Assembly (NCBI GenBank): GCA_025360225.1 | Contig: JANYCN010000034.1 | Span: forward strand, 34,063 to 98,062 | DNA length: 64,000 nt | Direction of reading: 5' to 3' | Source: Actinomycetes bacterium | GTDB taxonomy: Bacteria; Actinomycetota; Thermoleophilia; Gaiellales; F1-60-MAGs149 | Shown here: positions 1 through 53,780 of the stretch, one piece after another | How the letters are laid out: every line of letters starts with the position of its first letter | Numbering within the stretch: position 1 is the first letter of the stretch | Notes under the pieces: model-generated | What the model saw: the letters and a program-made list of their open reading frames with translations, nothing else | Database searches by the model: none | Told to the model about the DNA's origin: nothing | Translations under genes and position numbers: made by a program

Positions 1-1
1 T

Positions 2-36168: not shown

Positions 36169-36678
36169 TTAGACGACCCGGATGTGCTTGATCTCGAGGT
36201 CGCCGACGAAGATGTCGAGGTAGTCGCCTCGGATCACCGTGCCGGCCGCGTTGCGGAAGATGATGTAGTAGCCCTGGCCGGCGACGAGCGTCGAGTCGCC
36301 CGGGGTGAGGGCGCGGGTGTCGAGGATCTTCGCGGCGCGTTCGTCGCCGATCAGCATCTTCACGACGGAGTGGTGGCCGACGACGGGCTCGGCCTTGAGC
36401 GGGTCGAGGATGCGGAAGCGGACGTCGATCAGGCCGTCGTCGCCGGTCAGGCCGACCTGGTAGAACTGGATGCCGTACCTCGCCTCGATGTCAGCGTGGG
36501 CGGGGATCGCGCTGGGCTTGATCGCGCCAGCAGCCGGCGCGGGCGCGGCGGTCGGGTCGGCGCTGATCGCGCGGGCGCCGATGAAGGCGCCGACGGCGAG
36601 CAGCCCGGTAACGACGATGGCCGCGATCGCTGGTCGGCGGTCGCGGCCCCGTGGGATTGGTGGTGTGTCGATGCTCAT
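36169..36678 (-). CDS. Small N-terminally anchored extracytoplasmic protein of unknown function
   Basis: It has one TM helix (PAIAAIVVTGLLAVGAFIGA) and then a ~120-aa domain containing an HH pair. It sits between the cupredoxin genes and copCD. Confidence 0.6.
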   Translation of the reverse strand: MSIDTPPIPRGRDRRPAIAAIVVTGLLAVGAFIGARAISADPTAAPAPAAGAIKPSAIPAHADIEARYGIQFYQVGLTGDDGLIDVRFRILDPLKAEPVVGHHSVVKMLIGDERAAKILDTRALTPGDSTLVAGQGYYIIFRNAAGTVIRGDYLDIFVGDLEIKHIRVV

Positions 36679-39700: not shown

Positions 39701-40177
39701 CGCGGCGTTGACGATGCGGTACGTCGCGACGCTTCCGGGAGCGACGCCAGTGATGTCCGAGCCGCTCCGCCACGTGGTGCCGTTGTCGTGCGACCACTGC
39801 GACACCGCCTGAGGAAGCCCGAGCCCCAGCTCGCCCGCAAGCAAGCCGTTGTGAACGTTGATCGTGATCGTCACGCCGGCGGCGGCGACGATCGTCGGAC
39901 CGCCAACGCCGGTGTTGTCCGCCGGGGCTGCGCCCATCGCGAAGCGCCAGGTCGGGATGGTCAGTCCAGTTGCCGACCCGTCGGGGAGGGTGATGTGGCT
40001 GGCGCCAGCGTACAGCTCGACGGTGCAGTCAGCGGCACACTGCACCGGCAGCTTGCCGGTCGCCGTGGCGGGCGTCGAGGCGCCCGCGACCGGGACGGTG
40101 ACGACCAGCCCGGCGAGCGCGAGCGCGCCGGCCAGGATGCCGCGTCGGGCCCGGGGCCTCGTCTGGTGGTTGGTCAC
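36743..40177 (-). CDS. Tat-signal surface protein: two ligand-less cupredoxin (MCO-like) domains, Ig-like modules and a LamG/ConA-like C-terminus
   Basis: The GTG at 40177 is preceded by AGGAGA. The Tat-like signal is RARRGILAGALALAG. The MCO-fold landmarks GTYLYGAG...MGLYGALVVEA and WYLVNGQPT...LVRYVNAG are present, but the HxH and HCH copper ligands are absent. The C-terminal region, ending ...GTAKAAGTLYVDQYASTH, looks like a lectin fold. Confidence 0.75.
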   Translation of the reverse strand: MTNHQTRPRARRGILAGALALAGLVVTVPVAGASTPATATGKLPVQCAADCTVELYAGASHITLPDGSATGLTIPTWRFAMGAAPADNTGVGGPTIVAAAGVTITINVHNGLLAGELGLGLPQAVSQWSHDNGTTWRSGSDITGVAPGSVATYRIVNAAPGTYLYGAGATPNGKRENAMGLYGALVVEATTGVYGEASTFTDEQVAVLSDLDPALNLSPDPLAFEMNDPNGWNPSWYLVNGQPTASDVPVTGGSTTLVRYVNAGIENHWMGVLGSRQHHVGFDAHALTNVVSGLGQGIDAVIEALPGGSTADDLIAITSTTIDERTVIADQGKDMGLGGLGMALYLQVAGVSSSTTGLCPTAKATVQNLALGSAAAAHWSSGTGVTVTGSALQCLAGGAADTVAWSVDATPASASGSVSGSAAGGAFSISLTDSDLLTILQKESASPSTGWAKLHRIYFQATFSGVAGEVSSISFMLDNVGPDVTRVSLGAPVTNGTAALHFWATGDDSQTGGSDVASFTATVLGTSCAVTQIGVVPAVSVDLQGDIPLADCKTSLTDGQTYTVQITATDALGNTTSTTDATLNDVGTATFLYDATGPTTSFDVDPLKALQQRLPADATHPNGGIAVGWNNGTLGYDINQYYVRAYASAVDTSSHVADVVGAWQDVSSAAQPAMCSALNPAGTRFDFDGVTQVNPLSERRFAYIPLADLNRFISVMAGGISSSTATSITDSGKAGKWSPNLLQNLATPNTIAITSSTVGTDVGKFARITGNTSTGQITFTDGWRRIDNANLEVAALAPAAGAKYGLTLTVKYYARSQDEAGNWGSCASTTEIIDTTKPLVPTLEPAGVTQEGGAIAFRQAGKKLGKASRFILRLSGTENLGADAAAGGALSAAEWFEGSDPGLGKANALNVTGIKGTRYVVKLAAQIDVSRWSSGVHTLSVRVRDMAGNWSPIKKLTVLINFRPLFASGFENGMKGWKASGKVKVTKAAALVGKRGLAVTNGAVTHVDHLAVSAYHASFKLDTNGSTTGGDAQVILAGNNGAASVFTLERKTDATGQYLRVTAHDGSTVKTGDWVLVSDDVHTIAVDWYASKTGEINVKLDGVALTSLTGIDTATQRVDRVSLGATGTAKAAGTLYVDQYASTH

Positions 40178-40215
40178 GTCAGGGTCTCCTGCAGGGATGC
40201 GGGGGTTGGCGGTGG

Positions 40216-41736
40216 TCACTGTGCGCACCCCCAGTGGCCGGGCGGGTCGATGCGGTAGAGCGTGAGCATGCCGCCCATCGCCGCGCCGAAGGTCGTCGCC
40301 TCGTTCACTGCGTGGCTGTGGGCGACGTGGTAGTACTCGCCGCACTCGTTGAACGAGGTGATGCCCATCGGCAGGTCGTCCTGCTTGCCGAGGTACGGGG
40401 AGCCACCGAACCAGCTGTTGCCGACGGTGTAGCGGGTATCACGGAAGTCGTGCGTCGGCACGGGAATCGGGTTCGTCGCCGGATCCCAGCCGTGCGTGTC
40501 CTTCCAGAACCACGTGGAGTCGATCGTCTGGTTCGCGGCGATCTCGATCACGTAGTGGTTGATCGTGAGATCCGTGCCGTTCGCGACCAGCGGCGCACCG
40601 TCCACGCCGTGCACGAGCGTGTCTGCGGCGTGCGGGTGGAACGGATGGGCCGTCTCGCTGGCGTTGAAGTAGCGCACCGCGACGGGCAGCGGGTCGTAGC
40701 CGTTCAAGACGGTGTGCGGAAGTCCCAGGTTGGTCACGACGTGAGTCACAGGGTCCGTACGCGTCAACTGGGCACCGTCCGCCAGCGGCAGCACGTGGAC
40801 GAGGCCCGAGTACGGCTGGGCGGGGAGCCACTCGGCGCCGTTCGGGGCGATCGTGTCGGGCATCGAGCGCCCGTTGATGAACCAGTAGCGCGGCGTGAAC
40901 GCCGTCATCTCGTATGGCTTACCATGGTCGAGCGCCTGGTGCAGGTCAGAGTCGACGTCGCTCAGCACCTGCGCGTACTCGCGCCCGTAGCTATCGGCGA
41001 ACGTCGACGGCAGCAGCTCGGTGGTGTGGTTAAACAGCGTCGGGTTCGGACCCGTCGCATCGCTCGACGGATGGATCACGAGAGCGCCGAAGAGACCCAT
41101 CTGCTCCTGCTGGGCGGCGTTCGTGCCGCTCAGGTAGAGGAACGAGCCGGGCTTCGACGCGACGAACGAGTACGTCACCGACTGGCCAACGTCGACGGAC
41201 TGGACGGCCGACTGCAACGTCGTCGCCGGCGTGCCAGGGGCCGCTGTGTTCGTGACGATCTCCGGCTGCACCGGTGCGCCGTCCGCGGTAACCCCGGTCT
41301 GGCCGGGGAACTGGATCGACGTGCGCGGTGGCAGGGCCCCGGCGACGATCGGATCGCTGAGCGCGAGCCCGTTCGTGAGGCTGACCTTGATCGTCTCGCC
41401 CTCGTTCGCGCAGAGGAAGGGCGACGGGTAGCTGTAGTCACCCTCGTCCGATGCGTAGCCCCACATCGGAACCTGGTTGCCGTCTGGCGTGTGGATCTGG
41501 CCGTACTTCGCCGTCAGCTTGAACGTGCGGATCGTGACGCCGGTCTCGACGCTCTTCGTCCCGTTCGTGCAGACGAGCTCGTCGCTGCGGGTGAGGCTGG
41601 CCGACTTCGTGTGGCCAGGGGTCGTGAAGGCCCCGAACGCGCCTGCGGCCGTGATCGCCGCGACCGGCAGGAGCCAGATCGGGCGGACACGGCGGAGGCC
41701 GCGGCGGGGAGCGGTGGTGTTAGGTGTTCCGTCCAC
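40216..41736 (-). CDS. Two-domain multicopper-oxidase-like protein with copper ligands only in the C-terminal domain and no type-1 Cys
   Basis: The GTG at 41736 lies 9 nt after the upstream stop. The signal is PRRGLRRVRPIWLLPVAAITAAGAFG. The N-domain ends MGLFGALVIHP and has no HxH. The C-domain has AHPFHPHA (HxxHxH) and YYHVAHSHAVNE (HSH). Confidence 0.8.
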   Translation of the reverse strand: MDGTPNTTAPRRGLRRVRPIWLLPVAAITAAGAFGAFTTPGHTKSASLTRSDELVCTNGTKSVETGVTIRTFKLTAKYGQIHTPDGNQVPMWGYASDEGDYSYPSPFLCANEGETIKVSLTNGLALSDPIVAGALPPRTSIQFPGQTGVTADGAPVQPEIVTNTAAPGTPATTLQSAVQSVDVGQSVTYSFVASKPGSFLYLSGTNAAQQEQMGLFGALVIHPSSDATGPNPTLFNHTTELLPSTFADSYGREYAQVLSDVDSDLHQALDHGKPYEMTAFTPRYWFINGRSMPDTIAPNGAEWLPAQPYSGLVHVLPLADGAQLTRTDPVTHVVTNLGLPHTVLNGYDPLPVAVRYFNASETAHPFHPHAADTLVHGVDGAPLVANGTDLTINHYVIEIAANQTIDSTWFWKDTHGWDPATNPIPVPTHDFRDTRYTVGNSWFGGSPYLGKQDDLPMGITSFNECGEYYHVAHSHAVNEATTFGAAMGGMLTLYRIDPPGHWGCAQ

Positions 41737-41745
41737 GTCGTTACC

Positions 41746-43422
41746 TCAGATGCCCAGGTCGTTGGGGATGGCGATGCGCTGCGCGGCGACGGTGCCCGCG
41801 GGGTAGACGCGCACCTGGGTAGCGATACCCGTGTACACCGTTCCTCCGCCCGAGCCGTCGTTCGCGAAGTCGCGGTCGTAGAACATGTAGATGTCGGGCC
41901 CGTCAACCGCGTTGCCGGTGGAGTGCGCCGGCGCGATGAAGGTGGCGTCGTAGCTCTCACCCGGCGACACGTCGATCGTGTCCGTCGTGTAGACGTTGTT
42001 CTCGAGCCAGTCGGCGTCGCGCCCGACGACGGTGAGCGGGATGCCGTCCATCTGGAGCGAGTGGTCCTGATAGCCGAGGCAGGCGATGCGAAGCAGCACC
42101 CGCTCGCCGGGGTTGCACGTGATCAGCGAGGTGTACGGCTGGTAGGCGAGCTGCGTGTCGAGCAGGGAGTAGCTCACTGAACCCACGGCGGGGAAGCTCG
42201 GCGACCCACCCTGAATCGTGAAGGTCGTGCCCGTGTTCGCCGAGACCGTGAACGGCACGCCCCCTACGTTGGCGGTGGTGCCGACGAGCATGTTGTCGAC
42301 CCAGATCGGCAGGGGTGCGACGGCGGGCGTGATGACGGCCTGCGATGTTGCGGGCACGCCGAGAACGATCGGGTCGGCGACCGGCGCCGCCATCGTGCCG
42401 CTGCCGGAGCCGAGGTCGATGCCGACCTCGAGCACGGCGTTCGGCTTGATCGAGTCCGGGTACGAGCGCCCGTTGATCGTCCACGCGTCAGCGTGGAACT
42501 CCGACCAGTCGGGCTGCTGGATGTGCGAGAGCTTCTGGTGCTGCTGCAGGTCGTAGTCCATCAGCATGAAGGAGAACTCGCGGTTGTAGTACGTCGACCT
42601 CGGATCGGTGGGCTGGACGCCGTCGTTGTAGACGTACCTGATCGGCAGCCCGGCCACGGCACCGGCGAAGGTCGCGGCGCTCGGGAAGGTCACGTTCGAG
42701 TTCTGCTTCGGGCGGATCCAGACGGAGCCGGTCATGCCGAGCTGGATGTGCTCGACGTCCTCCCAGTGGCAGTGGTACATGTACGTGCCGGGCACCTGGC
42801 AGTCGTAGAAGTACGTGAACGTCTTGTTGATCGGTGCCGCGCCAGACATCTCCGGGACGCCGTCAAACCATGGCGTGGCGTTCTTGAAGCCGTGCCAGTG
42901 CACGGTGTGTCCGTCGGGGATGTCGGGGCGCTGCGCCCAGCCGAGGTTGTACAGCGTGATCTCGACCTGGTCGCCCTCGTCGTAGGACATGATGTACGAC
43001 GAGGTCTGGGTGAGGCCTTTCAGCCGGTAGATCTTCTGTCGTGCAGCGTCGGCGTCGCTCGACGTCGGGTCGATCTTCGCGGCCGCCACCCACTCCAGGT
43101 GCGCCGCGGTGACATCACGGAAGCCGTAGCAGTACAGGTTCTGCGGCGCTCGTGCCATGTCGTCCGGGAAGTAGACCTTCCCGTCGATCCCGGTCTGGCC
43201 CGGGCCAGGGATGTACGCCCAGCCGTCGGTGCCAGCGAGGGCGACCTGCGTCTTGACGGCGCTCGGGATGTTGGCCGCGCTCTCCCCTCCGTGCGCCGCG
43301 GCTGAGCCGGGCGCACGAAGGGTCTGGATGAGCGCTCCGGCGCCGAGGGCGCCAGCGGTGAGCCCGCCGCCGAGCTCGAGCAGCCGACGGCGGCTCATGC
43401 GCGGGTTCGAGGCGTGGGTCAC
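41746..43422 (-). CDS. Tat-exported two-domain multicopper oxidase with all its copper ligands in the N-terminal domain
   Basis: The GTG at 43422 forms a GTGA overlap with the giant gene's stop and is preceded by AAGGGGG; the ATG at 43398 is an alternative start. The Tat signal is MSRRRLLELGGG. Ligand motifs are HTVHWHG and YMYHCHWEDVEHIQLGM. The C-domain has YQDHSLQMDG in place of HxHxH. Confidence 0.85.
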   Translation of the reverse strand: MTHASNPRMSRRRLLELGGGLTAGALGAGALIQTLRAPGSAAAHGGESAANIPSAVKTQVALAGTDGWAYIPGPGQTGIDGKVYFPDDMARAPQNLYCYGFRDVTAAHLEWVAAAKIDPTSSDADAARQKIYRLKGLTQTSSYIMSYDEGDQVEITLYNLGWAQRPDIPDGHTVHWHGFKNATPWFDGVPEMSGAAPINKTFTYFYDCQVPGTYMYHCHWEDVEHIQLGMTGSVWIRPKQNSNVTFPSAATFAGAVAGLPIRYVYNDGVQPTDPRSTYYNREFSFMLMDYDLQQHQKLSHIQQPDWSEFHADAWTINGRSYPDSIKPNAVLEVGIDLGSGSGTMAAPVADPIVLGVPATSQAVITPAVAPLPIWVDNMLVGTTANVGGVPFTVSANTGTTFTIQGGSPSFPAVGSVSYSLLDTQLAYQPYTSLITCNPGERVLLRIACLGYQDHSLQMDGIPLTVVGRDADWLENNVYTTDTIDVSPGESYDATFIAPAHSTGNAVDGPDIYMFYDRDFANDGSGGGTVYTGIATQVRVYPAGTVAAQRIAIPNDLGI

Positions 43423-46400
43423 TTCGCCCCCTTCCGGTTGTTGGAGATGGACACGGTCTGCCACGCGGACACGTTCTTGCTGCGGCCGGTGGCGATCACG
43501 ACCCGCACCCGGTAGGTGCCGGCCTTCAGGTTGACGGAGACGTTGTACGTCCTCGTGCCAACCGTCATGCGGTACGAGCGAACGGTCGAGCCGACCTTGA
43601 CCTGGAGGGTCGCGGTCGATCCGGCCGAGACGGGGCTCCAGCGAAGGCCACCGATGCTGCCCACCGGGGCTGCGTGCGGGTCCTGGCTGGCGAAGCGACC
43701 GATCGCGGCCGACACCTTGAGGGTGCCGCCCTTCACGAGCGGCGCGATCCACGCGGACTTCGTGCCGCCGTTGTACTGGTCGGCGCCACGATCGTTCACT
43801 GCCGTGGCCGCTCGCGGCTCACCGTCAATGTCGGTGCCTGGAGCGAAGAAGCGCTCCCGTCCGAGAGCAGGCGGGTTGCTGCCGACGCCTGTCTGGAGAC
43901 AGTTCGTCTGCGACGTCGACAGGTAGGTGCTGGCTGGGCCAGCGCCATCCGCGACGTCGACGCACTGGACGCCGCCGCCGATCGCCGAGCTCGACTTGTA
44001 GTTCCCCATCCGGACGGACGGGAAGTCGATCGCGAGGATCGTCCCGGCGATGAAGTTCGCGTCGCCGCGGAACGGTGCGAGGATCACGCTCGTGTCGTAG
44101 GTCGCATCCTGGATGCTCGCCGGTGCGGGAACAGCCAGGAGGCTCGAGTCAGGGCTCGCACCGGCGGAGCTCGACGTGGTCGTCGTGCTGCCCTGCGGGT
44201 AGAGCGTGACGCCGTCGACCGAGCCGATGTCCCAGATCGCCGGGTTCGACGTGTCGCCCGAGAGCCCGATCCCGGTGACGATGCCACCGTTGTAGGTGCC
44301 GGCGAGGTTGCCCCAGAAGTAGTTGTTCAGGAGCGTCGGCGGCGTCGAGGCCGGGACGTTCGCGGAGCCCATCAGCACCACGCTGTTCAGCGCCGTGGAG
44401 AGACCGGCCGGGGCAGGCTGCCCGTTCGACGTCATCGCGGTGGCGGTGGTGAGGTTCTTCATGATCGTGTTGTTCGCGATCAGCAGCTTGCTCGTGTCGT
44501 CGATCGCGATGCCGCCGCCCTCGTGCGCGGAGACGTTGTTCGCGATCACGTTGTTCGTGACCTTGATCTGGTGGTTTCCGGCCATCAGGAACCGGATGCC
44601 ACCTCCATCGTCACCTGCGAGGTTCGACTGAATGACATTCGCGTCGATCGTCACCGTGCCCGAGCCAGCCGAGATGCCCGGCTGGGGCGGCAGGCCCGGG
44701 AAGAGCTTCGGGTTCGGCAGCTGGCCGGCGATGAACACGCCGGCTCCCTCGTCGTAGCTCTGGTTGAAGTAGACGCGGTTCTTCGTGATCATGCCGTTCG
44801 GCGAGAGGCCGTAGTGCGAGATGCCACCACCGTACTCGGCGGAGTAGTTACCGCAGACGACGTTGCGCTGCACCGTGTAGTCATCAGAGCCGTTGAACAG
44901 GCCCACGGCACCGGCGAGGCGGAAGCCGCCGTTCGCGTCGAGCTGGTTGTTCGCGATCGTGACGTGGTCGTTCTTCTTCGCGCTCTGTAGGAGCTCCGGC
45001 ACGTACGGCGAGCCGATCCGGATGCCGCCGCCGAGCGAGCCAGCGTTCTGGTTGATGATGTTGTTCTTGACCTCGAGGTAGTGCGCCGAGGAGGCTGCGA
45101 AGACGCCGCCACCCTGGCTCGCCGGCTGGCCGACGGCCTGCGTGCGGGCTGGCAGCGGGCCACCGCCGGTGGCGGTGTTCAGGCCACCCGGCAGCTCGAA
45201 CGACGTGCCACCGGTGAGCTGGAAGCCGTCCACGGCAGCGCGGTAGGCGCTGTTGAAGAGGCTGTTGTTACCACGCTGTCCGGTGAGCACCGTGACGACA
45301 GCGCCGTCCTGGAGCGTGTCGGTGTTCCGGATCATGCCCTGCACCCAGGTGGCGAGGTCGTACCACCACACCGCGTACGCGGTGCCGGAGCCGTCAGCGA
45401 GCGACGCGGTGCCGAACTGCGAGCCATCGATCACCGTGCCGTCCTCCGTCGTGCCGCGAAGGTTGACGTCGGAGTAGCTCGACGGGTAATCACCGCCGGC
45501 ACCGAAGCCCTGGAGCTTGATGCGCGTCGGAACGATCAGGTTCTCGAAGTAGGCGCCACGCGGGTTGATCACCGAGCGGCCACGGTTCGTCGGGTCGTAG
45601 GAGACCTCGTGCGAGCCAGGGTGCACCATGATCAGGCTCGGACGGTTGTCTAGCTGGTCGCCTGGACCGGGCGTGTTCTCGCCGAGCCCACCGATCGCGT
45701 TGGCGTCGATGTTCGCCGAGGCGTCGATCGCTGCCTGGATGCTCTTGAACTGGTTCGCGAGCGGCGCCAGGTAGCCGTTGCCTGCGCTGCCGGCGTTCGG
45801 GCCGACCTCGAAGAGGCGCGGGTTGGTCGGCGTGCCGACCGCACCGGAGCCGAGCAGGAAGATCGAGACGGCGTTGACCGCCTCCTGGTTGTTGTTGGTG
45901 TTGTCGACGTACAGCTGGTAGCTGCCCGCCGCTCCGGCCGGGACGTGCACGGTGATCAGGTTGTCGGCCGAGGCCGCCACCGAGGTCGTCGTGACGCCGG
46001 CAAGACCGGGCAGGAACTCCCACCGCTCGCCCGGCAGCGGCAGCCGCTGGCGGCCGACCGTGGTCGGATCGAGGGCGAGCGTGTTCGTGCCCGTGGTCAC
46101 GCCGGCGATCGTTGCGGTGAAGCCGGACGCCGTGCGGACCTGGCGTCCAACCATCGCCTGCACGAGCGCCGTGCCGCCATCCACCGCGACGACCATCGAG
46201 TTGTGGTCGACGGCGACCGCGTTGGCGGTAGCGGAAGCGGGAGTGCCGTCACCGGCAACCGGTGGGGTGCCCTGTGCTGCGCTGAGGAAGAGCTGGGTCG
46301 CCTGGATCCCCGGGTTGAAGGTGGCGCCCTGAGAGCTATCGATCCGGGCCGAGAACGCCTGGTCCTTGAAGTACAGGCCGGCGGGGTCGACGGTGAGGCG

Positions 46401-49400
46401 CGGGCTGATCGTCACCGACTGCGTGCCGGCGATCGAGTACGTCGCTGCACCCGACGGCGCTGGTATCGCCGGGGTGATGCCGGTCAGGCTCAGCTTGCCC
46501 GTTGCCGTCCCGGTCGAGCTGACGGTGCCCGAGATGGTGCCGGTGTAGGCGCCCGGCGCGGTGAAGCTCACGGTCGCTCCGACCGCCCCGGTAGCCGTGT
46601 ACGGCGTTGCGACGATCGCGCCGTCGATCGTGTAGGCCGCGCCCGTCGCGGGAGCGGTCGTACCGGCAAGCGTGAGCCGCGCTGGCACGGCGAAGGCCCT
46701 CGTGCCGGCACCAGCGGTGGATGGAGCGGTGTAGGCGGTGACGGTGTACGTCGCGGCGCCGACGCGGACGATCGAGCCGACCACCGCGCTCGACGTGTAG
46801 CTCTGCGAGACGTACGCGCCGTTCGTGAGCTGGGTCAGGGTGACGGTCCACGGCGTGCCAGCGGCGAGGTTGAACGTCCCGAGGATGCGGATCCCAAGCA
46901 CGTTGACGACCGTCACCGGGTAGTTGACACCGCCCGCTACGAGCGTCCCTGCCCAGCCGGTCGGGTAGCCCGGAGCGGGAATGCTGAAGGCCGCTCCGCC
47001 GGCGGCGACGGTGCCGCTCCCGTTCTTGACCCGCGACAGCGACACGTTCCAGGTCGAGCCAGCCGGCAACGTGAAGGTGCCATTGAGCGTCGAACCGCTC
47101 GCGTTCGTCGAGACGTCGTAGGTCGTGGTGCTTCCGCCGACGGTGCGGGAGATCGTTCCTGTCCAAGGCGCCGGGAAGGGGTTGACGGCACCCACGTTGA
47201 TGGTGTTCGTCGCCCCGCCGCCGCCAATGGTGACCGTTCCCGTGTACACCGCAGGAGCGACGGTGCCGCCAGCGAGCTGCTGGTAGGTGCCCGTGCCGGT
47301 CGTCGTCGGCGAGTACGCCTGCACCTGGTAGCCCTGGGTGTCGTACGACGTGACCGAGCCGGCGTAGCTGAGCACGCCGTTCTCCTCGTTCACGAGCTTC
47401 ACGCTCGGCGCGGTGCCGAACCCGATGCCCTTGACGACGAAGTCGCCGCCGGTGGCTGCCGAGGTCGCAACCTTGTCGATCGAGAACACCTGCGGCGTCA
47501 CGTTCGCGCCGGTCTTCTGCAGCATGCAGTCGGCCGGGTGGTTCGACGTTGCGCCCGCACCCTGCACCGGCGCTGCGGCCGAGGTGAGGGCGAGGTCGGT
47601 GATGTAGGAGACGCCAGGGTAGAGCTGGAAGGGCGCCGCGATCGTGCGGTACTGCGCGTTGTAGTGCTGGTTCGGCTTCGTCGGCCGCGGGTTGTAGAGC
47701 GGGTCGTTGACCGCCTTGCCGTCCGCCGTCCAGGTGCCGCCATCGTTGTAGTCGGCGTGCTTCGGGTCGGCCGTCGACGGGTCGTTCGCGACCAGGGTGT
47801 AGACCTGGGGCGAGACGCCCGACGGCGTCGGCGCGTTGATGCGGTTCGTCGTCGGCAGCATCACGCTGTAGTAGCCGTTGGCGTCCGTGACGGTCTCCGC
47901 CTGGAGACGACCCGACCAGTCGTAGAAGGAGAGCGGCATGTGCACTGCCGGCGACTTGTCGCCGTAGAACGACTCTTTCGGGTCGATCGACACGTTCAGG
48001 TCGTCGATCAGGAGGCCGAAGTGGATGCCGGGGAGCGGCGTGTTCGTGAAGAGCTCGAACGACGGTGCGACGGACTCGCTGTTGTCGACGTGCACGACCT
48101 TCGAGTCGCAGAGCGCGGCGCGCTTGCCCTCGTAGGGGCTGCCACCCGTGCCTGCGAAGGCGTCGTTGGCGATCGGGAACGACTGCGGCAGCGCGGTCTT
48201 GTTGATGTCCGTCGTCTGACCGGTCGCCGTGGCACTGACGGCCCCGTACCCGTCCGTCCCGGCTCCAAGAACATCGACCTGGCGGCTGATGCCAGAGCAC
48301 TCCTGGAAGAGGATCTTCGGCGCGTTCGGCTGGCCGACGGTATCACCGGTGTAGACGTTGATGTCCTCTTCCTTGGTGACGTTGTAGATCGCGTTGCCGT
48401 TCTTGTCGACAGGGATCTCCTCCTTGACGACGTAGTCGCCCGGCGACATCGGCACCGTGGTGCCATGCGAGGAGTCGGTGAACACGTCGGTGAGCGCGTA
48501 GTTGCCGTTCAGCTTCGCGCCCCAGTCCTTGCCGCCGTTCCCGTCCGGGATCAGACCAACCTTCGAGCCGCCGCCGATGCCCTCGACGCACTCGTGCGGC
48601 TGCGTCGCGGACTCGTTCGTTGCGAGGCCCACCGGCGTCGTCCAGGGCACGGCGTTGGTGGCGGCGGTCTCGGCGTTGAAGTGATCCTGGACGCCGGAGA
48701 AGTTGCCGTTGACGAGAGCGTTGCCGGTGCCGAGCGTGTAACCCCACTCGGCCTGCCACGGGTAGGCGACGGCGCCGCCCTTCGCGTTGAAGGTGGTGCA
48801 GTCGACCGGGCGCGCCCAGCGCTCGGTCGTGTACGCCGGGCCTGCGTCGTAAAGGTCGGGGCTCGCGGCGGTCTTGTCCTTCACGATCAGGTCGTTCTGG
48901 TTCGCCGGCACGCCCGACGGATCGAGCACCATCACCGACCCGTCCTTCGGGTCATAGAGGGTGTGTCCGGCCGCGTCCTTCGCGACCTTGAAGAGGTGCA
49001 TGCGGATTCCGGGAATGCCCGGCTGCCAGTCCTCGAGCTTCGCCTGGTCGGCCTGCGTCTCGTTGCGCGTCGTGCCGTAGGAGACGGTGCCGACGATGCC
49101 GCCGTTCTCGGTCTTCGTGTACGGCTGCTTCGCCCAGTTGATCCGGACGGCCTGCGTGATCCACGGGATCACGTTGATGTCGACCGCGCCACCGAGGTAG
49201 GTGGTTGGCTTCGCGTCGTTGCCGGACTGCACGGTGATGCCGGTGTTCTTGTAGGCGGTGTCGAAGGCCTCGAGGATCGTCCACTGGCCGATCGGGTAGA
49301 GGCCGGGCAGGTCGTAGTTGCCGTTCTGGTCGGTGAAGGTGGAGTTCGTGCCCTGCTCGAAGAGGGTGTTCTCGCGCGAGCGATGGCTGAGGAAGAAGTG

Positions 49401-51680
49401 CGGCAACCCGGGCTCGCCCGGCTCACCCTTCTCCCACATCCCGTCGTGGTTGGTGTCGACGAAGTCCTGCTTGCCGTTGCCGTTCAGGTCGTTGAAGACC
49501 GAGCCCTGCAGGTGCGTCCACCAGCGCGGCAGGCGCAGCGTGTCCATCTCGGACTGCTCGCCGGCGACGACGGTGACGTTCTGCGAGTAGAGGATCTGGT
49601 TCTGGTCCCAGTCCCACACGGTGATGCCATAGTCGCCGGGCAGCACGCCCTCGACCTTGAACTCGCCGGTCTTGTACAGCGCCTTGATCGCCGGATCGTC
49701 GGCGAAGAAGGAGCGCGACCAGATCGTGCGGTCACCGTTCTGGAAGTCGACCAGCGCGACCTCGAGGCGCTTCTCCGCGCCCGCATCCTGCTGCAACGAG
49801 TACTCGTTCTGGCCGATGTAGTTGCCGTTCACGGGGTTCGGCGAGTAGGACAGCGAGTCGTGCACGAAGCCGTGGATCGAGCCGGTGGCGGTCGCGGCGA
49901 CGGCTCGTGTGAACGGACCCTGCGGGCGGTTGACCGTGAACGAGGCGCCAACGGCCGGCACGTCGGAGAACGGCGTGTCGACGGTGAACGTACGATCGCG
50001 GAGCGACAGGACCGTGTGCACCGTGCCGCTCGTGTCGCCCACGAGCGTGACGGTGCGACCGATCAGGTTCCCGGGCACGTTGCCGTTGCCGGCGATCGTG
50101 ATCGCCGTGGTCGGCGTCGTCGGGCCAGGGGTCGGCAGACCATCGGCACCGTTGTAGGAGGAGGTGTGCACCCAGCCGGAGAACGCCCAGGCGACCTTCT
50201 CGCCGCCGTTCACGAGCTCCCAGTCAAAGCCGCTGTCGCCGGCGACGCTCCAGATGTCCCAGTCGTGCGCGCCCTCGAGCGTGCTCGTCTGCGTCCACTC
50301 GGGACGATGGATCGTCGCGGGCGAGCCGCCCGTCACGTCCGGCGGCGAGATCGTCGTCGTGTTGCGGTTCGGCTCGAGGTTGCGGATCACGACGTGACCC
50401 TTCTCCTGAATGTAGGAGCCCGCGTTCTCCGGGTCAGGGATCCACTCGGAGTGCGAGAGGCACTTGCCGCCCGTCCCCGGGATCACCTGCGGCTGAGCGA
50501 TGTTGCCCTGCGCGTCGATCCAGCGCTCGGGATGGTTCGCGTCGACGGCGTCGTAGTGGACGCCACGGTAGTCACCCTCGGCGGTCTTGAAGACCGGGTC
50601 GCCGTTGCCGTCGTACAGCTGGTACACGGAGAGGCCGGCACCGTCAAGCACCGGCATGCCCTTCATCTTGTTCGGCGGCACGGCATTCGTCGAGTCCAGC
50701 TGGTCCGCGCCGTAGAACAGCGGCACGTAGTCCGAGCAGATCTGGTGGACGTAGGCGTCCGTCGTGATCGCCTCGCCGGTGATGTCCGTGACGACCGCCT
50801 TGAAGCCGTTCAGGCCCTGCTCCTCGGTGCGGTCGTACTCGCTGTTCGTCGGCGCGACGTCCGCGAAGACGTCGCGGCGCACGGTCACCAGGGGCTGCGG
50901 GTTGAACTGGGCGAACACGTCTACCGCCTTCGTCGTCGGCTGCGAGCAGCCAACGCCGTTGACGTCGAGGTTGTCCGCGCCGCAGACGACCGTGAAGCTC
51001 GTGCCCGCGACCTCGTAGCCCTGTGCGTAGACGGAGACGAAGTACTTGCCGGCAGGCAGGTCGGCCGTCGGCGTGGCGGTGTACGGGGACTGGACGGAGG
51101 GACCCCAGCCCGCGACCGTCGTGCGGGTTCCGGCGAGGACGGTCTGGTCGCCGAGGGTGCGCGGGTCGGTGGCGACGTTGTCGCCCGCCGTCATGACGGC
51201 GACGGTGCCGGCGTCCTGGGCGCTGTTCGCCGCAAGGCTGCCGGACGCTGGAACCTGGACGTTGCCCGTGGTGCCCGGGTCGATCGCGCGCAGCGAAGCC
51301 CAGTTGCAGCCGACGGGGTAGGTCTGGTAGAGGGCGGCCTGCTGCGCCGCGGGCGCGTCGCTCGGCCGGCAGGCGAAGTAGGAGCTGAGCTGCGCCGCGC
51401 TTCCACCGAGGCTCAGGAACGAGCGGCCGGTGGCCTCGTCGAAGCCCTGCCACGGGTCGCTGACGGTGTCGCGGACGATCACCCAGTGGTAGGGCGTGCT
51501 CGCGTCGATCTTCGCGCCGTCGTGCTTGAAGATCGTGCTGTCGGCCGGGTTCGCGACCGTCCGACCCTCCCTGACCTGCAGCGTGAGCGTGTCTGCAAGG
51601 GCAGGGATCGCCCCGGCCAACACGAACGCAGCCGTCGAGGCGGCTGCCAGCACGGTCCTACGCAATCGTCGGTGGATCAT
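43419..51680 (-). CDS. Giant (about 2750 aa) secreted protein with SdrD/Cna-B-type beta-sandwich, IPT/TIG-like and right-handed parallel beta-helix repeats
   Basis: The ATG at 51680 is preceded by GAGGAG. The signal is MIHRRLRRTVLAAASTAAFVLAGAIPALA. The SdrD-B-like segment is LQGSVFNDLNGNGKQDF...FTDQNGNYDLPGLYP. The beta-helix turns are VKNNIINQNAGSLGGGIRI, VQRNVVCGNYSAEYGGGISH, IDANVIQSNLAGDDGGGIRF and VTNNVIANNVSAHEGGGIAI. Confidence 0.85.
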   Translation of the reverse strand: MIHRRLRRTVLAAASTAAFVLAGAIPALADTLTLQVREGRTVANPADSTIFKHDGAKIDASTPYHWVIVRDTVSDPWQGFDEATGRSFLSLGGSAAQLSSYFACRPSDAPAAQQAALYQTYPVGCNWASLRAIDPGTTGNVQVPASGSLAANSAQDAGTVAVMTAGDNVATDPRTLGDQTVLAGTRTTVAGWGPSVQSPYTATPTADLPAGKYFVSVYAQGYEVAGTSFTVVCGADNLDVNGVGCSQPTTKAVDVFAQFNPQPLVTVRRDVFADVAPTNSEYDRTEEQGLNGFKAVVTDITGEAITTDAYVHQICSDYVPLFYGADQLDSTNAVPPNKMKGMPVLDGAGLSVYQLYDGNGDPVFKTAEGDYRGVHYDAVDANHPERWIDAQGNIAQPQVIPGTGGKCLSHSEWIPDPENAGSYIQEKGHVVIRNLEPNRNTTTISPPDVTGGSPATIHRPEWTQTSTLEGAHDWDIWSVAGDSGFDWELVNGGEKVAWAFSGWVHTSSYNGADGLPTPGPTTPTTAITIAGNGNVPGNLIGRTVTLVGDTSGTVHTVLSLRDRTFTVDTPFSDVPAVGASFTVNRPQGPFTRAVAATATGSIHGFVHDSLSYSPNPVNGNYIGQNEYSLQQDAGAEKRLEVALVDFQNGDRTIWSRSFFADDPAIKALYKTGEFKVEGVLPGDYGITVWDWDQNQILYSQNVTVVAGEQSEMDTLRLPRWWTHLQGSVFNDLNGNGKQDFVDTNHDGMWEKGEPGEPGLPHFFLSHRSRENTLFEQGTNSTFTDQNGNYDLPGLYPIGQWTILEAFDTAYKNTGITVQSGNDAKPTTYLGGAVDINVIPWITQAVRINWAKQPYTKTENGGIVGTVSYGTTRNETQADQAKLEDWQPGIPGIRMHLFKVAKDAAGHTLYDPKDGSVMVLDPSGVPANQNDLIVKDKTAASPDLYDAGPAYTTERWARPVDCTTFNAKGGAVAYPWQAEWGYTLGTGNALVNGNFSGVQDHFNAETAATNAVPWTTPVGLATNESATQPHECVEGIGGGSKVGLIPDGNGGKDWGAKLNGNYALTDVFTDSSHGTTVPMSPGDYVVKEEIPVDKNGNAIYNVTKEEDINVYTGDTVGQPNAPKILFQECSGISRQVDVLGAGTDGYGAVSATATGQTTDINKTALPQSFPIANDAFAGTGGSPYEGKRAALCDSKVVHVDNSESVAPSFELFTNTPLPGIHFGLLIDDLNVSIDPKESFYGDKSPAVHMPLSFYDWSGRLQAETVTDANGYYSVMLPTTNRINAPTPSGVSPQVYTLVANDPSTADPKHADYNDGGTWTADGKAVNDPLYNPRPTKPNQHYNAQYRTIAAPFQLYPGVSYITDLALTSAAAPVQGAGATSNHPADCMLQKTGANVTPQVFSIDKVATSAATGGDFVVKGIGFGTAPSVKLVNEENGVLSYAGSVTSYDTQGYQVQAYSPTTTGTGTYQQLAGGTVAPAVYTGTVTIGGGGATNTINVGAVNPFPAPWTGTISRTVGGSTTTYDVSTNASGSTLNGTFTLPAGSTWNVSLSRVKNGSGTVAAGGAAFSIPAPGYPTGWAGTLVAGGVNYPVTVVNVLGIRILGTFNLAAGTPWTVTLTQLTNGAYVSQSYTSSAVVGSIVRVGAATYTVTAYTAPSTAGAGTRAFAVPARLTLAGTTAPATGAAYTIDGAIVATPYTATGAVGATVSFTAPGAYTGTISGTVSSTGTATGKLSLTGITPAIPAPSGAATYSIAGTQSVTISPRLTVDPAGLYFKDQAFSARIDSSQGATFNPGIQATQLFLSAAQGTPPVAGDGTPASATANAVAVDHNSMVVAVDGGTALVQAMVGRQVRTASGFTATIAGVTTGTNTLALDPTTVGRQRLPLPGERWEFLPGLAGVTTTSVAASADNLITVHVPAGAAGSYQLYVDNTNNNQEAVNAVSIFLLGSGAVGTPTNPRLFEVGPNAGSAGNGYLAPLANQFKSIQAAIDASANIDANAIGGLGENTPGPGDQLDNRPSLIMVHPGSHEVSYDPTNRGRSVINPRGAYFENLIVPTRIKLQGFGAGGDYPSSYSDVNLRGTTEDGTVIDGSQFGTASLADGSGTAYAVWWYDLATWVQGMIRNTDTLQDGAVVTVLTGQRGNNSLFNSAYRAAVDGFQLTGGTSFELPGGLNTATGGGPLPARTQAVGQPASQGGGVFAASSAHYLEVKNNIINQNAGSLGGGIRIGSPYVPELLQSAKKNDHVTIANNQLDANGGFRLAGAVGLFNGSDDYTVQRNVVCGNYSAEYGGGISHYGLSPNGMITKNRVYFNQSYDEGAGVFIAGQLPNPKLFPGLPPQPGISAGSGTVTIDANVIQSNLAGDDGGGIRFLMAGNHQIKVTNNVIANNVSAHEGGGIAIDDTSKLLIANNTIMKNLTTATAMTSNGQPAPAGLSTALNSVVLMGSANVPASTPPTLLNNYFWGNLAGTYNGGIVTGIGLSGDTSNPAIWDIGSVDGVTLYPQGSTTTTSSSAGASPDSSLLAVPAPASIQDATYDTSVILAPFRGDANFIAGTILAIDFPSVRMGNYKSSSAIGGGVQCVDVADGAGPASTYLSTSQTNCLQTGVGSNPPALGRERFFAPGTDIDGEPRAATAVNDRGADQYNGGTKSAWIAPLVKGGTLKVSAAIGRFASQDPHAAPVGSIGGLRWSPVSAGSTATLQVKVGSTVRSYRMTVGTRTYNVSVNLKAGTYRVRVVIATGRSKNVSAWQTVSISNNRKGAK

Positions 51681-51888
51681 GTCGTCGCATCTCCTCGGCG
51701 CATTGGGCAACTGCTCCTTCTCTTCTCGCGCGTGCGTTGTCTTGAACCGCACGGCGCGGCTCGTTTCGGGTGTGTTCGGGGCGGCCAGGACGCGTTCCGT
51801 GGCGGGCCTGAACGATCGGTTTCTCCGTCGTGGGGATAACGGAGGTCTCCGCTAACCTACATGGTTCTACCGGAAACTGTCGATGTTT

Positions 51889-51904
51889 ATGACAAAGTTG
51901 TCAT
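51889..51904. promoter_or_regulatory. Perfect palindrome ATGACAA-AG-TTGTCAT in the AT-richer leader/promoter region of the giant gene
   Basis: I read this directly from the sequence. It lies in the 259-nt gap between the HK stop (51940) and the ATG at 51680. It is flanked by related half-sites (TGTCGAT, CTGACATC) and by small hairpins at 51909-51926 and 51823-51844. Confidence 0.5.
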
Positions 51905-51939
51905 CAAGCTGACATCATAGCGTCAGATTGGCAGGATCG

Positions 51940-53055
51940 TCAGATCGCGCGGCGCGGCGCCTTGCCGCGGGCGCGCGCCGGCACGAAGCCGGGCAGCCGC
52001 ACGGTGACGCGCGTCCCCTCGCCGGCGGCGCTCGCGGCGGCGACGGTGCCGCCGTGCGCCTCGACGACGTCGCTGACGATCGCCAGACCGAGACCGGAGC
52101 CGCCCGTCTGGCGCGAGCGCGAGCGATCGCCGCGGTAGAAGCGATCGAACACGTGTGGAAGCGCCTCCGGCGGGATGCCGACGCCCGTGTCGGAGACGAC
52201 GATCACCAGGACGTCGCCGTCGGAGGAGGCGTCAACGGCGATCCGGTCGCCTGCGCTGGTGTAGCTGACGGCGTTCTCGAAGATGTTGTCGAGCGCCTGC
52301 GCGAGCGTGTTGCCGTCGCAGACCAGCGTGCCGTCAGCAGCGATCGCGACGTCCCAGACGCGGTCACCGACCGCGAGCCAGCGTTCCGCGATCGACTCGA
52401 GCAGCTCCTGCGCATCCGTCGGCGCGCGCTCGAGCGCGGCGGCTGCGTCGAGCCGGCCAACGAGCAGCAGGTCACCGACGAGCGACTCGATGCGCCGTAG
52501 CTCGTCGATGACGATCCGCTTCGCCTCCGACACGTCCGCGGCGCTCGGCGGCCCAGCGCGGCCGAGGATGTCGAGGTGGCCGTGCGCGATCGTCAGCGGC
52601 GTCATCAGGTCGTGCGTCACGTTCGCGAAGAACGCGCGCTCGCGCTCGAGCACCCGGCGGCGCTCCTCGGCAAGCTCCGTCACCTGCACGGCAGCCTTCT
52701 GGCGGCTGCGCACGTGCCACGCGGTCGAGAGGAACATCGAGATCATCATCGGCACCTCGACCAGCTCGGCGACCCCCTCACCGCCGCCGACGACGTTCAC
52801 GAGCGTCAGCCCGCCGGTCGTCACCGTCACGCCGACCGCGGAGACGACGACGCCGCGCGTCTGCCAGAGGCGCAGCCCGTAGACGATCGTCACCGCCGTG
52901 TAGATGAAGTGGAACGGGATCGGCGCGAGCGCCGCGTGCACCACCAGCATGCCGACGAGGCAGAGGGCGACGAACGCCGTCAGGAGCCACTCGGCGCGGT
53001 AGCCAACCGCCGCCCAGCGGATCAGCGAGCGGACCGCTCCGACGCCCTCCGTCAT
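51940..53055 (-). CDS. Sensor histidine kinase (membrane-embedded N-terminus, HisKA and HATPase_c domains)
   Basis: The H-box is FFANVTHDLMTPLTIAHGHLDIL. The G-boxes are DTGVGIP and GGSGLGLAIVSDVVEAHGG. About four hydrophobic helices are present and there is no large sensor domain. ATGA overlap with the response regulator. Confidence 0.9.
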   Translation of the reverse strand: MTEGVGAVRSLIRWAAVGYRAEWLLTAFVALCLVGMLVVHAALAPIPFHFIYTAVTIVYGLRLWQTRGVVVSAVGVTVTTGGLTLVNVVGGGEGVAELVEVPMMISMFLSTAWHVRSRQKAAVQVTELAEERRRVLERERAFFANVTHDLMTPLTIAHGHLDILGRAGPPSAADVSEAKRIVIDELRRIESLVGDLLLVGRLDAAAALERAPTDAQELLESIAERWLAVGDRVWDVAIAADGTLVCDGNTLAQALDNIFENAVSYTSAGDRIAVDASSDGDVLVIVVSDTGVGIPPEALPHVFDRFYRGDRSRSRQTGGSGLGLAIVSDVVEAHGGTVAAASAAGEGTRVTVRLPGFVPARARGKAPRRAI

Positions 53056-53714
53056 TCCGAGAGGCGGTAGCCGGCCGACCTGACCGTCTCGATGCGATCC
53101 TGGCCGATCTTCCCGCGCAGCCGACGCATCGACACGTCGACGACGTTCGTGTTCGGCTGGTGCGAGTAGCCCCAGACCGCGCTGAGCAGGCGCTGACGCG
53201 AGATCGTGCGCCCACGGTTGCGCATCAGGTACTCGAGCAGGCGGAACTCGAGGCCCGTCAACACGATCGGTCCCTCGCCACCGTCGACGCGGTGCGAGCG
53301 CGTGTCGAGCACGAGACCGCCAACCTGCAGCACCTCGGCGCCGGCGTCGGTCGCCGCACGGGCCCGCTGGTGGATGCGGATCCGTTCGACGAGCTCGTCA
53401 AAGGAGAACGGCTTCACCATGTAGTCGCAGGCGCCGCCCCGCAGACCCTCGAGCTTCGTCGCGATGTCGCGCCGCGCCGAGAGGATCAGCACCGACAGGT
53501 CCGGATACTCGACCTTCAGCCGCTCGAGCACCTCGAGACCGTTCATCCCGGGCAGAGCGAGGTCGAGGATGACGAACTCGATCTCGTTGCGCGAGACCCA
53601 GGCAAGCGCCGACTCGCCGTCCGACACCGCGTCCACGACGAAGCCCTCGGCCTGCAGGCCGCTCGTGAGAAACCGCGAGATCCGGGGCTCGTCTTCAACG
53701 ACGAGGATGCGCAT
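53052..53714 (-). CDS. OmpR-family response regulator
   Basis: The receiver domain is MRILVVEDEPRISRFL...VILDLALPGMNGLEVL. The C-terminal winged helix is LTGLEFRLLEYLMRNRGRTISRQRLL...VDVSMRRLRGKI. Confidence 0.9.
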   Translation of the reverse strand: MRILVVEDEPRISRFLTSGLQAEGFVVDAVSDGESALAWVSRNEIEFVILDLALPGMNGLEVLERLKVEYPDLSVLILSARRDIATKLEGLRGGACDYMVKPFSFDELVERIRIHQRARAATDAGAEVLQVGGLVLDTRSHRVDGGEGPIVLTGLEFRLLEYLMRNRGRTISRQRLLSAVWGYSHQPNTNVVDVSMRRLRGKIGQDRIETVRSAGYRLSE

Positions 53715-53726
53715 GGGTCGTTCCTC

Positions 53727-53751
53727 GGGGTGGGGGTTGGCGGTGGGGGGG
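53727..53751 (+). other. G-run tract (GGGGTGGGGGTTGGCGGTGGGGGGG), C-rich in the response-regulator 5' leader
   Basis: I read this directly from the sequence. It lies 13 nt upstream of the ATG at 53714 on the opposite strand. Confidence 0.6.
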
Positions 53752-53780
53752 TGCCGCCAGCTCAATCCTAACGGACGATC

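Follow-up and report, generated by a model that had tools for sequence, protein, structure and literature searches.

Two-domain multicopper oxidases (MCOs) such as SLAC, mgLAC (2ZWN) and the Nitrosomonas europaea enzyme (3G5W) are homotrimers in which each chain carries all the copper ligands, and in these enzymes, as in the trimeric copper nitrite reductases (NirK), the catalytic copper site lies at the subunit interface. Here, we analyzed a gene cassette in a 64,000-nucleotide stretch of DNA from an Actinomycetes bacterium (GenBank assembly GCA_025360225.1, contig JANYCN010000034.1, positions 34,063 to 98,062), hereafter the window, in which the gene of a secreted 2753-residue protein, the giant, is followed by three paralogous genes of the two-domain type, MCO-A, MCO-B and MCO-C. 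In contrast to the homotrimeric enzymes, the ligands are split over two of the paralogs, with none in the third, and the oxidase genes are obligately linked to a giant non-cupredoxin protein. The reading that we favor, at slightly less than an even chance, is that the giant is a polymer-binding or targeting subunit, itself without catalytic copper, of an extracellular split oxidase.

Several described systems overlap with the cassette in part. The Cop/Pco loci (copABCD-copRS, pcoABCDRSE) and the CusRS regulon have in common with it an MCO, probable CopC and CopD functions, an OmpR-type two-component system and the core of a putative operator, whereas the MCOs of the cassette are two-domain-type and split, CopB/PcoB is missing, and the cassette has the giant and an S8 peptidase in addition. 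Its likeness to Cop/Pco lies in the probable regulation and the CopC/CopD content and does not extend to the oxidase. The Mnx oxidase of Bacillus is a multi-subunit complex in which the oxidase is joined by accessory subunits. In Geobacter OmpB and Leptothrix MofA, as in the cassette, an extracellular oxidase is combined with adhesive or Ig-like domains (PMC5566968). The adhesion domains of OmpB and MofA lie within the MCO chain and the accessory subunits of Mnx are small, whereas here such domains are carried by a separate protein of 1700-3400 residues.

The giant itself combines parts known from two other groups of proteins. With the A-modules of AlgE, the PL6 and PL1 lyases and the CASH/PbH1 proteins, including NosD, it shares a right-handed parallel beta-helix with an Asn ladder and GGG turns, but it has no sequence-level relation to them, their catalytic motifs were not found in it, and its helix sits in a multi-sandwich protein tied to an oxidase. 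With the MSCRAMM protein SdrD and the pilins of Gram-positive bacteria it shares CnaB/SdrD-B-type sandwiches with Ca2+ motifs that form a stalk, while lacking an LPXTG motif, a ligand-binding A domain, and a sortase or pilin context. The giant is a member of the PbH1/CASH beta-helix superfamily with SdrD-B-type domains, and it lacks the LPXTG signal of the MSCRAMMs, scores below the NosD cut-off and carries no lyase or epimerase signature.

Linkage of the giant to the oxidase genes

The longest minus-strand open reading frame (ORF) at this locus, in a window with a G+C content of ~70%, spans 43419-51752 and yields 2753 residues from the ATG at 51680 (43419-51680); positions are those of the window throughout, and all genes and protein features described lie on its minus strand. 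This is the first structural gene of the cassette, and since public assemblies hold an identical 2753-residue protein (P0001; contig L001), it is a real called gene. The N-terminus, MIHRRLRRTVLAAASTAAFVLAGAIPALA, followed by DT after the cleavage site, is a typical Sec-type signal peptide (residues 1-29, 51594-51680). Signal peptides are present in all homologs examined, whose N-termini are hydrophobic and have no conserved twin-arginine motif. An earlier note on this DNA, made from the sequence alone, had described a secreted protein of this length, and it was right in this respect.

A scan of one genome per species across 185,579 species gave at least 481 confirmed places with a relative of the giant, and synteny was counted in the best 80 of them. 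MCO-A and MCO-B genes lie directly downstream on the same strand in 73, while the remaining seven (L011, L022, L024, L061, L067, L071, L081) reach a contig end 0-1.6 kb past the last giant match. The earlier note had held that giant and oxidase belong together and had named homologs without MCO neighbors as the finding that would speak against it; such homologs were looked for, and of the 80 loci counted only these seven contig ends were without the neighbors. In seven contigs carrying homologs of 31-42% identity, the giant, MCO-A and MCO-B are present in all seven and an MCO-C-like gene in six, usually with the small ORF, CopC/CopD and/or the S8 peptidase downstream and often with a two-component system upstream. 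A search in the reverse direction gave the same result, as the three MCO-B homologs taken from cultured species outside the species-scan list (Nakamurella panacisegetis, Sphaerisporangium album and Plantactinospora siamensis) all have a giant of 1720-1820 residues two genes upstream.

The hosts found in the scan, mostly soil and sludge heterotrophs, comprise Chloroflexota, a few Anaeromyxobacter-like metagenome-assembled genomes (MAGs) and many Actinomycetota, among them Intrasporangium, Terrabacter, Nocardioides, Cellulomonas, Xylanimonas, Cryobacterium, Frigoribacterium and Planosporangium. Two distant loci show other arrangements. In Methylotenera versatilis, the order is regulator, MCO-A-type gene, MCO-B-type gene and giant, beside pseudopilin and secretin genes and a SCO1/SenC copper chaperone gene. 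In the second (P0044), the giant comes first, then two MCO genes, a gene for a 911-residue protein and finally a small ORF, and a secretin gene is close by. Linkage holds at every evaluable locus in Actinomycetota, Chloroflexota, Myxococcota-like bacteria and Betaproteobacteria, in both search directions and with varied gene order; it is both obligate and ancient.

In these diderm hosts (L091, positions 1-5891 and 25135-25845, for Methylotenera versatilis, and P0044), the giant and MCO genes stand beside secretin genes, to which Methylotenera adds PilN and a pseudopilin, resembling type II secretion or type IV pilus systems; this neighborhood suggests dedicated outer-membrane export.

Division of the copper ligands

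The conservation of copper ligands was assessed by aligning the ORFs downstream of the giant across loci. MCO-A (558 residues, 41746-43422) has a twin-arginine translocation (Tat) signal with the motif SRRRLLELGG and three Cu-oxidase Pfam domains. It carries the motifs HxxHxH and HCHx5Hx4M, which supply the type 1 (T1) copper ligands H172, C218, H225 and M230 and four trinuclear-cluster histidines, H175, H177, H217 and H219, all conserved at 95-100% in 78 sequences. Among solved structures, MCO-A comes closest to the two-domain MCOs 2ZWN and 3G5W and then to NirK, and, as in 2ZWN, the T1 site and the HxxHxH and HCH motifs lie in the N-terminal cupredoxin domain. Two further histidines of MCO-A, H295 and H300 (~42523-42540), are 100% conserved and lie outside the canonical T1 and trinuclear motifs.

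MCO-B (506 residues, 40216-41736), whose family comprises at least 1047 clusters, has a Sec-type signal and no T1 cysteine, and its two HxH motifs, H367/H369 and H473/H475, are conserved at 97-99% in 76 sequences. MCO-C (1158 residues from the GTG at 40219, 36743-40219) consists of a cupredoxin domain with a long Ig-like (Big_13) C-terminal extension; no His or Cys exceeds 81% conservation in its alignment across loci, and it has no conserved copper ligands. Where a homotrimeric two-domain MCO has a T1 site and all eight trinuclear histidines in each chain, MCO-A has the T1 site and four of the histidines, MCO-B has four, and MCO-C has none. This division holds in 70-78 sequences, and the Methylotenera pair divides its ligands in the same way, with HTVHFH and HCH in one protein and HPFHEH and HSH in the other. 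Instead of the "MCO pair" of ordinary oxidases named earlier, there are three paralogs, cupredoxin proteins of the two-domain type whose copper ligands complement one another. On the side of the classical copper-resistance oxidases, three-domain MCOs of the CopA/PcoA kind, the CopA model TIGR01480 scores only 39.6 bits for MCO-A and 22.7 for MCO-B against a cut-off of 479.

Because the ligands are divided between MCO-A and MCO-B, the simplest reading implies a heteromeric oxidase in which the trinuclear site would lie between these two proteins, with the copper-less MCO-C as a presumed third member. MCO-A always carries a Tat motif, whereas MCO-B, MCO-C and the giant have Sec-type signals, and this difference in export would place the assembly of the complex and the loading of the interface copper outside the cell, a plausible job for the extracytoplasmic CopC domain encoded downstream.

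The beta-helix of the giant

Around 45 full-length homologs of the giant were found, mostly in MAGs of Chloroflexota and Actinomycetota, ranging from 1650 to 3360 residues with a typical length of 1650-2300. BLAST against them delimits three conserved blocks in the giant (residues ~200-510, ~600-1430 and ~1900-2640), the last of which belongs to a C-terminal region (residues ~1900-2640, 43761-45980) that includes a right-handed beta-helix. Across the whole giant, the Pfam scan places Beta_helix alone above its cut-off (PF13229, residues 2338-2418, 32.9 bits vs 25.9), with NosD, fn3_3 and Big-like matches below threshold, and the NCBIfam scan gives no match. The parallel beta-helix of at least seven turns proposed from the sequence is borne out: the sequence shows ~8 turns with the Asn ladder and 5-6 GGG(I/V) turns, and the AlphaFold2 model of residues 1890-2753 has a mean predicted local distance difference test (pLDDT) score of 67, with coils at ~90. 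In Foldseek searches, the top match of this model is the A-module of the mannuronan C-5 epimerase AlgE6 (E 5e-4, probability 1.0), followed by PL6 alginate lyases, capsule-depolymerase tailspikes, pectate lyase C (PelC) and NosD, the large-domain matches all being beta-helices.

The helix core (residues 2150-2470, 44271-45233), set by its invariant columns, pLDDT of ~90 and profile, is the best-conserved part of the giant family. Its invariant or near-invariant residues, C2276, E2282-Y2283, D2310-E2311, D2357-D2358, R2363 and H2386 (~90%)-E2387, directly precede the GGG turn of four successive coils, beside the Asn ladder, and all are intact in the giant. Among 1.84 billion representatives, the core profile matches 685 clusters (at 50% identity) with E<=1e-30, a number that rises to 1164 when E<=1e-10 is allowed, and against solved structures it finds no beta-helix protein by sequence, even at E<=10. 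No lyase or epimerase family matches the giant in Pfam or NCBIfam, and the AlgE motif YG(F/I)DPH(D/E) does not occur in it, the nearest string being EYGGGISHYG. With 13.8 bits, the NosD model PF05048 stays below its cut-off of 23.6, and the neighborhood contains no nos genes.

Sandwich domains, insert and C-terminus

Upstream of the helix, the giant is built largely of beta-sandwiches. The N-terminal region that the earlier note had been unable to assign can be placed: Foldseek searches with an AlphaFold2 model of residues 30-520 (50121-51593), built from 36 homologs (mean pLDDT 63.5, with the low-confidence parts in lineage-specific inserts and loops), return SdrD, the pilins SpaA, GBS52 and EbpB, and related CnaB-type sandwiches (E 5e-4 to 5e-2, probability <=0.98). 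Because these matches are SdrD and pilin CnaB-type sandwiches, the region is best seen as more stalk. In the alignment of homologs, the N-terminal region measures 611 residues in the giant, against ~340 in most of the others.

The middle block (residues ~600-1450, 47331-49880), delimited by BLAST, consists of SdrD-B/CarboxypepD_reg-type sandwiches with conserved cysteines and is closed by an IPT/TIG domain (residues ~1395-1470). Precomputed Pfam assignments on homologs give PF17210, PF13620, PF14686 and PF01833. Both module types had been recognized from the sequence alone, and both stand, the SdrD-B-type sandwiches by the Ca2+ motif DxNxNGxxD (SVFNDLNGNGKQD) and a match of the family profile to SdrD at E 2e-9, the IPT/TIG module by matches to the IPT-like domain of a cyclodextrin glycosyltransferase (CGTase; E 1.4e-8) and to an IPT/TIG protein (E 4e-3). 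In the search of solved structures with the full-length family profile, matches were confined to these SdrD-B and IPT parts.

Between this block and the helix lies a Thr/Gly/Ala-rich stretch (residues ~1450-1900, 45981-47330) that had been described as long beta-repeats. The stretch exists, but self-BLAST and tblastn show no sharp internal repeats in it, and at 451 residues in the giant, 734 in P0004 and 10-35 in 40 other aligned homologs it is a lineage-specific insert outside the family core; ~430 residues of the giant are insert, shared among the aligned homologs only by P0004. Treating it as a defined repeat was rejected; to MCO-C and to a 1600-residue protein encoded upstream it has just a weak compositional similarity. 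MCO-A, at 558 residues, is ~100 longer than its typical homologs (415-456), an insertion judged from length alone, and this together with the insert in the giant suggests parallel insertions in several proteins of the operon. Such lineage-specific Thr/Gly/Ala insertions may be O-glycosylated linkers.

For the C-terminus (residues ~2641-2753, 43422-43760), the beta-sandwich proposed earlier is modeled as four long strands, at a low pLDDT of 50-63 and in a part of the protein that aligns only with its closest relatives (P0002-P0004). The protein ends in SISNNRKGAK, with neither an LPXTG motif nor a hydrophobic or membrane segment, and nearly all homologs likewise lack both, which makes the earlier idea that the giant anchors the oxidase to the cell unlikely as stated.

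Modules shared between the giant and MCO-C

The giant and the MCO-C of the same operon end alike in 22 of 69 loci: over their terminal ~230 residues they are 44-86% identical, the value being 76% in L007 (giant residues 1732-1985 vs MCO-C residues 742-989) and 86% in L076; further cases include L035, L043, L050, L055, L057, L070 and L086. Orthologous giants from different genera are just ~35-40% identical overall. The shared module matches no Pfam family, and in another locus the giant and MCO-C both carry Golvesin_C. The same terminal module on otherwise unrelated proteins of one operon would be expected if both were sent to the same ligand or surface, and the module looks like an address, with a bearing on the locus of the window that is indirect. 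A separate resemblance of 32 residues, at 53% identity, links MCO-C (residues 946-977) to the S8 peptidase of the cassette (residues 745-776) through an OmpL47/Big_13-type domain.

Operon-like layout and a putative operator

The TGA stop codon of the giant (43419-43421) overlaps the GTG start of MCO-A (43420-43422) in a GTGA (43419-43422) within the 3' end ggaagggggcgaaGTGAcc, as the earlier note had observed. At this junction, four relatives (L002, L003, L008 and L009) read ATGA, and the N-termini of their MCO-A proteins, MTDASHVRLSRRRLLELGGG, align with VTHASNPRMSRRRLLELGGG. An alternative MCO-A start, an in-frame ATG 24 nt downstream, was rejected; it is not conserved in the relatives, whereas the overlapped start is, which makes the overlapped GTG the better choice. 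The purine-rich GGAAGGGGG, four bases upstream of this GTG, is a plausible ribosome-binding site. A second GTGA overlap joins the MCO-B stop to the MCO-C start (40216-40219), and MCO-A and MCO-B are separated by 9 nt.

Between 31000 and 44000, no promoter- or terminator-like sites were found, shuffled sequences giving 0.4 and 2.9, respectively. With such short junctions, co-transcription of the giant and the oxidase genes is plausible, as claimed from the sequence. The second part of that claim, that the overlap holds the two products in linked amounts, does not generalize: the 4-nt overlap occurs in 19 of ~79 other loci, while elsewhere the two genes usually stand ~10-140 nt apart and in a few cases several hundred nt or farther, so that operon linkage is general and coupling by overlap is typical of some lineages only.

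Within the 259-bp intergenic region (51681-51939) between the histidine kinase gene and the giant, a perfect palindrome, ATGACAAcTTTGTCAT (51889-51904), lies 209 nt upstream of the giant ATG and is a putative operator. It is the single match in the window, and none was found in 100 shuffles (0 expected). The CusR box of E. coli, also present in the pcoE promoter, is the palindrome TGACAAnnTTGTCAT (PMC11195947), and the core of ATGACAAcTTTGTCAT is identical to it. The degenerate form ATGACR-N4-YGTCAT has 16 matches in 1.9 Mb of giant loci, every one of them a short way upstream of a giant homolog, and all 16 loci belong to Actinomycetota with an OmpR-type two-component system. In the lineage of the window, this putative operator would probably confer copper-responsive control.

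Other genes of the cassette

The conserved order of the cassette is two-component system, giant, MCO-A, MCO-B, MCO-C, small protein, CopC-CopD and, often, S8 peptidase. The response regulator (53052-53765; Pfam Response_reg and Trans_reg_C) belongs to the OmpR family, and the sensor histidine kinase gene (51940-53055; HisKA and HATPase_c) overlaps it by 4 nt; the pair precedes the giant in L003, L008 and L044 and is divergent in L088-L090. Downstream of MCO-C, a small protein of 169 residues with an N-terminal membrane segment (36169-36678) has tblastn matches in ~55 loci and no Pfam or NCBIfam family. Most loci have it immediately behind MCO-C, and it could be an assembly factor or a copper chaperone. 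The probable CopC-CopD fusion (34435-36165), a copper-handling or import protein that recurs downstream in many loci, scores 59.3 with Pfam CopC (cut-off 23.3) and 31.3 with CopD (cut-off 32.1), and below the cut-offs of the NCBIfam equivalogs. The subtilisin-like S8 peptidase with Big_13 domains (31934-34687, start approximate; Pfam Peptidase_S8) likewise recurs in many loci.

Upstream of the two-component system, a 1600-residue protein (53781-58583) has Flg_new_2 (InlB B-repeat-like) and PEGA matches. It was rejected as a member of the cassette, since it lies near the cassette only in the contig identical to the window.

Discussion

On the reading that we favor, the giant would open a single operon whose promoter, marked by the CusR-box-like palindrome, is probably controlled by the adjacent heavy-metal-type two-component system in response to a signal that is probably copper. 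The giant would be exported unfolded by Sec and would not be covalently anchored. Its CnaB/SdrD-B-type sandwiches would form a rod that serves, with the IPT domain, as a spacer, and at its far end the invariant acidic, His, Tyr and Arg residues on successive coils of the CASH-type right-handed beta-helix would form a putative groove. The polymer bound in this groove would be anionic, in the likeliest case a glycan from the envelope, the matrix or the surroundings, and the groove may also modify it; the giant would thereby hold or target the oxidase on the polymer. The oxidase would be built outside the cell from MCO-A (exported by Tat, with the T1 site and half of the trinuclear ligands), MCO-B (exported by Sec, with the other half) and MCO-C (exported by Sec, with adhesive C-terminal domains), and CopC-CopD would support the supply of copper. 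A more specific proposal can be made only tentatively, and we regard it as possible but doubtful: that a heterotrimeric MCO of three paralogous two-domain cupredoxin proteins, with one T1 site and one trinuclear site across MCO-A and MCO-B, is paired with a giant beta-helix arm presenting a polymer and is switched by copper, in which case the cassette would encode an undescribed class of extracellular machine.

Several observations weigh against the favored reading. The invariant ladder E-Y/D-E/D-D/H-E and the Arg are equally compatible with a catalytic site of the lyase or epimerase kind or with a metal-binding site, and since the helix core has no sequence-level relative among solved structures, its residues cannot be aligned to the catalytic residues of AlgE or PL6 and compared one by one. 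Taken as a whole, the AlphaFold2 models have moderate confidence (mean pLDDT 67 and 63.5). The giant and MCO-C of the window have no module in common, the co-targeting argument being borrowed from other lineages. The response regulator has as its top NCBIfam model the heavy-metal family TIGR01387 (cztR_silR_copR), at 192.7 bits and below the cut-off of 279, and the loci of Chloroflexota have NarL-type regulators and no palindrome, so that copper control, if real, is not universal.

An alternative that we consider unlikely is that the giant is itself an enzyme, its beta-helix being a polyuronide or glycan lyase or epimerase that acts in sequence with the oxidase on an extracellular polymer such as plant wall, humic matter or extracellular polymeric substances, with no need for a stable complex between the two. 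The PL1, PL6 and AlgE families have Ca2+ or acid-base sites, and the invariant Tyr, His, Asp/Glu and Arg on successive coils of the giant resemble them; the best fold match is the catalytic A-module of AlgE6, ahead of the PL6 lyases, tailspikes and pectate lyase C, and soil and sludge heterotrophs would suit such an activity. Yet the giant matches no lyase or epimerase family at the sequence level and lacks the AlgE motif, such an enzyme would not need a stalk of more than 1200 residues, and the C-terminal modules common to the giant and MCO-C would be left unexplained.

It is improbable, in our view, that the giant is instead the substrate, processed by the S8 peptidase and the oxidase and oxidatively cross-linked into a protective surface layer or matrix. 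In other systems, structural proteins are known to be cross-linked by laccase-type enzymes, the spore-coat protein CotA and the insect cuticle laccase-2 being examples, pilin/CnaB-type domains are typical of covalently stabilized surface polymers, and a very large structural protein would here be made in linkage with an oxidase and a protease. Against this, Tyr and Lys are not enriched in the giant (3.6% and 2.5%), its best-conserved part is the beta-helix groove and not a cross-linking motif, and the S8 gene is missing from a substantial fraction of the loci.

There is only a slim chance that the cassette is the monoderm counterpart of Cop/Pco copper resistance, with an oxidase that detoxifies Cu(I) and a giant that binds or sequesters copper at the surface. 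The CusR-box-like operator, the heavy-metal-type response regulator, the presence of CopC-CopD in the operon, the weak CopA-family similarity of MCO-A and MCO-B and the weak match of the beta-helix to NosD, a "periplasmic copper-binding" family, all fit it. The CopA-family and NosD scores, however, fall below their cut-offs, the former by far, and CopCD proteins are usually importers, as in YcnJ, which fits cofactor supply better than resistance. The giant is also poor in His (1.4%), Met (0.8%) and Cys (0.5%), unlike Met/His-rich copper binders, and the possibility that it is a copper sponge was rejected on this composition.

A similarly slender probability attaches to extracellular oxidation of Mn(II) or Fe(II), in which the acidic helix and the sandwiches of the giant would bind metal or nucleate and hold mineral, by analogy with OmpB and MofA. 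Among the candidates for metal oxidoreductases are extracellular MCOs that carry adhesion domains, and the iron oxidizer Sideroxydans has been noted to have three genes for extracellular MCOs in tandem (PMC5566968); the ladder of acidic residues on the helix, and the position of the triad beside a secretin in Methylotenera and in the second distant locus, would also agree with this. However, beyond the cupredoxin fold there is no homology to MofA, OmpB or MnxG, the hosts as a group are not known metal oxidizers, and the cassette contains neither cytochromes nor porins. Finally, accidental adjacency or mere inherited synteny of giant and oxidase is practically excluded by the synteny survey, because linkage holds at every evaluable locus, across phyla and in both search directions, despite changes in gene order.

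Searches of the full-text literature brought up no account of the giant family or of a two-domain MCO that is split. Public databases name the giant "SdrD B-like domain-containing protein," "uncharacterized repeat protein (TIGR01451 family)" or "hypothetical protein" and its partners "multicopper oxidase domain-containing protein" or "copper oxidase." Both families are abundant, with the giant at no fewer than 481 places, 685 helix-core clusters and more than 1000 MCO-B clusters, and apparently no member has been characterized. Experiments are feasible, as cultured carriers include Nakamurella panacisegetis, Intrasporangium, Terrabacter, Nocardioides, Cellulomonas, Xylanimonas and Planosporangium.

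The split heterotrimer, if true, would be a new multicopper oxidase architecture and a natural test of the route proposed from two-domain to six-domain enzymes, being a living intermediate between homotrimeric two-domain and single-chain six-domain MCOs. The obligatory pairing with the giant points to a way in which an MCO might be steered to a substrate that is insoluble or polymeric, with relevance to soil carbon turnover, biofilm matrix chemistry and laccase engineering. Such a machine, if real, would be widespread in soil Actinomycetota and Chloroflexota.

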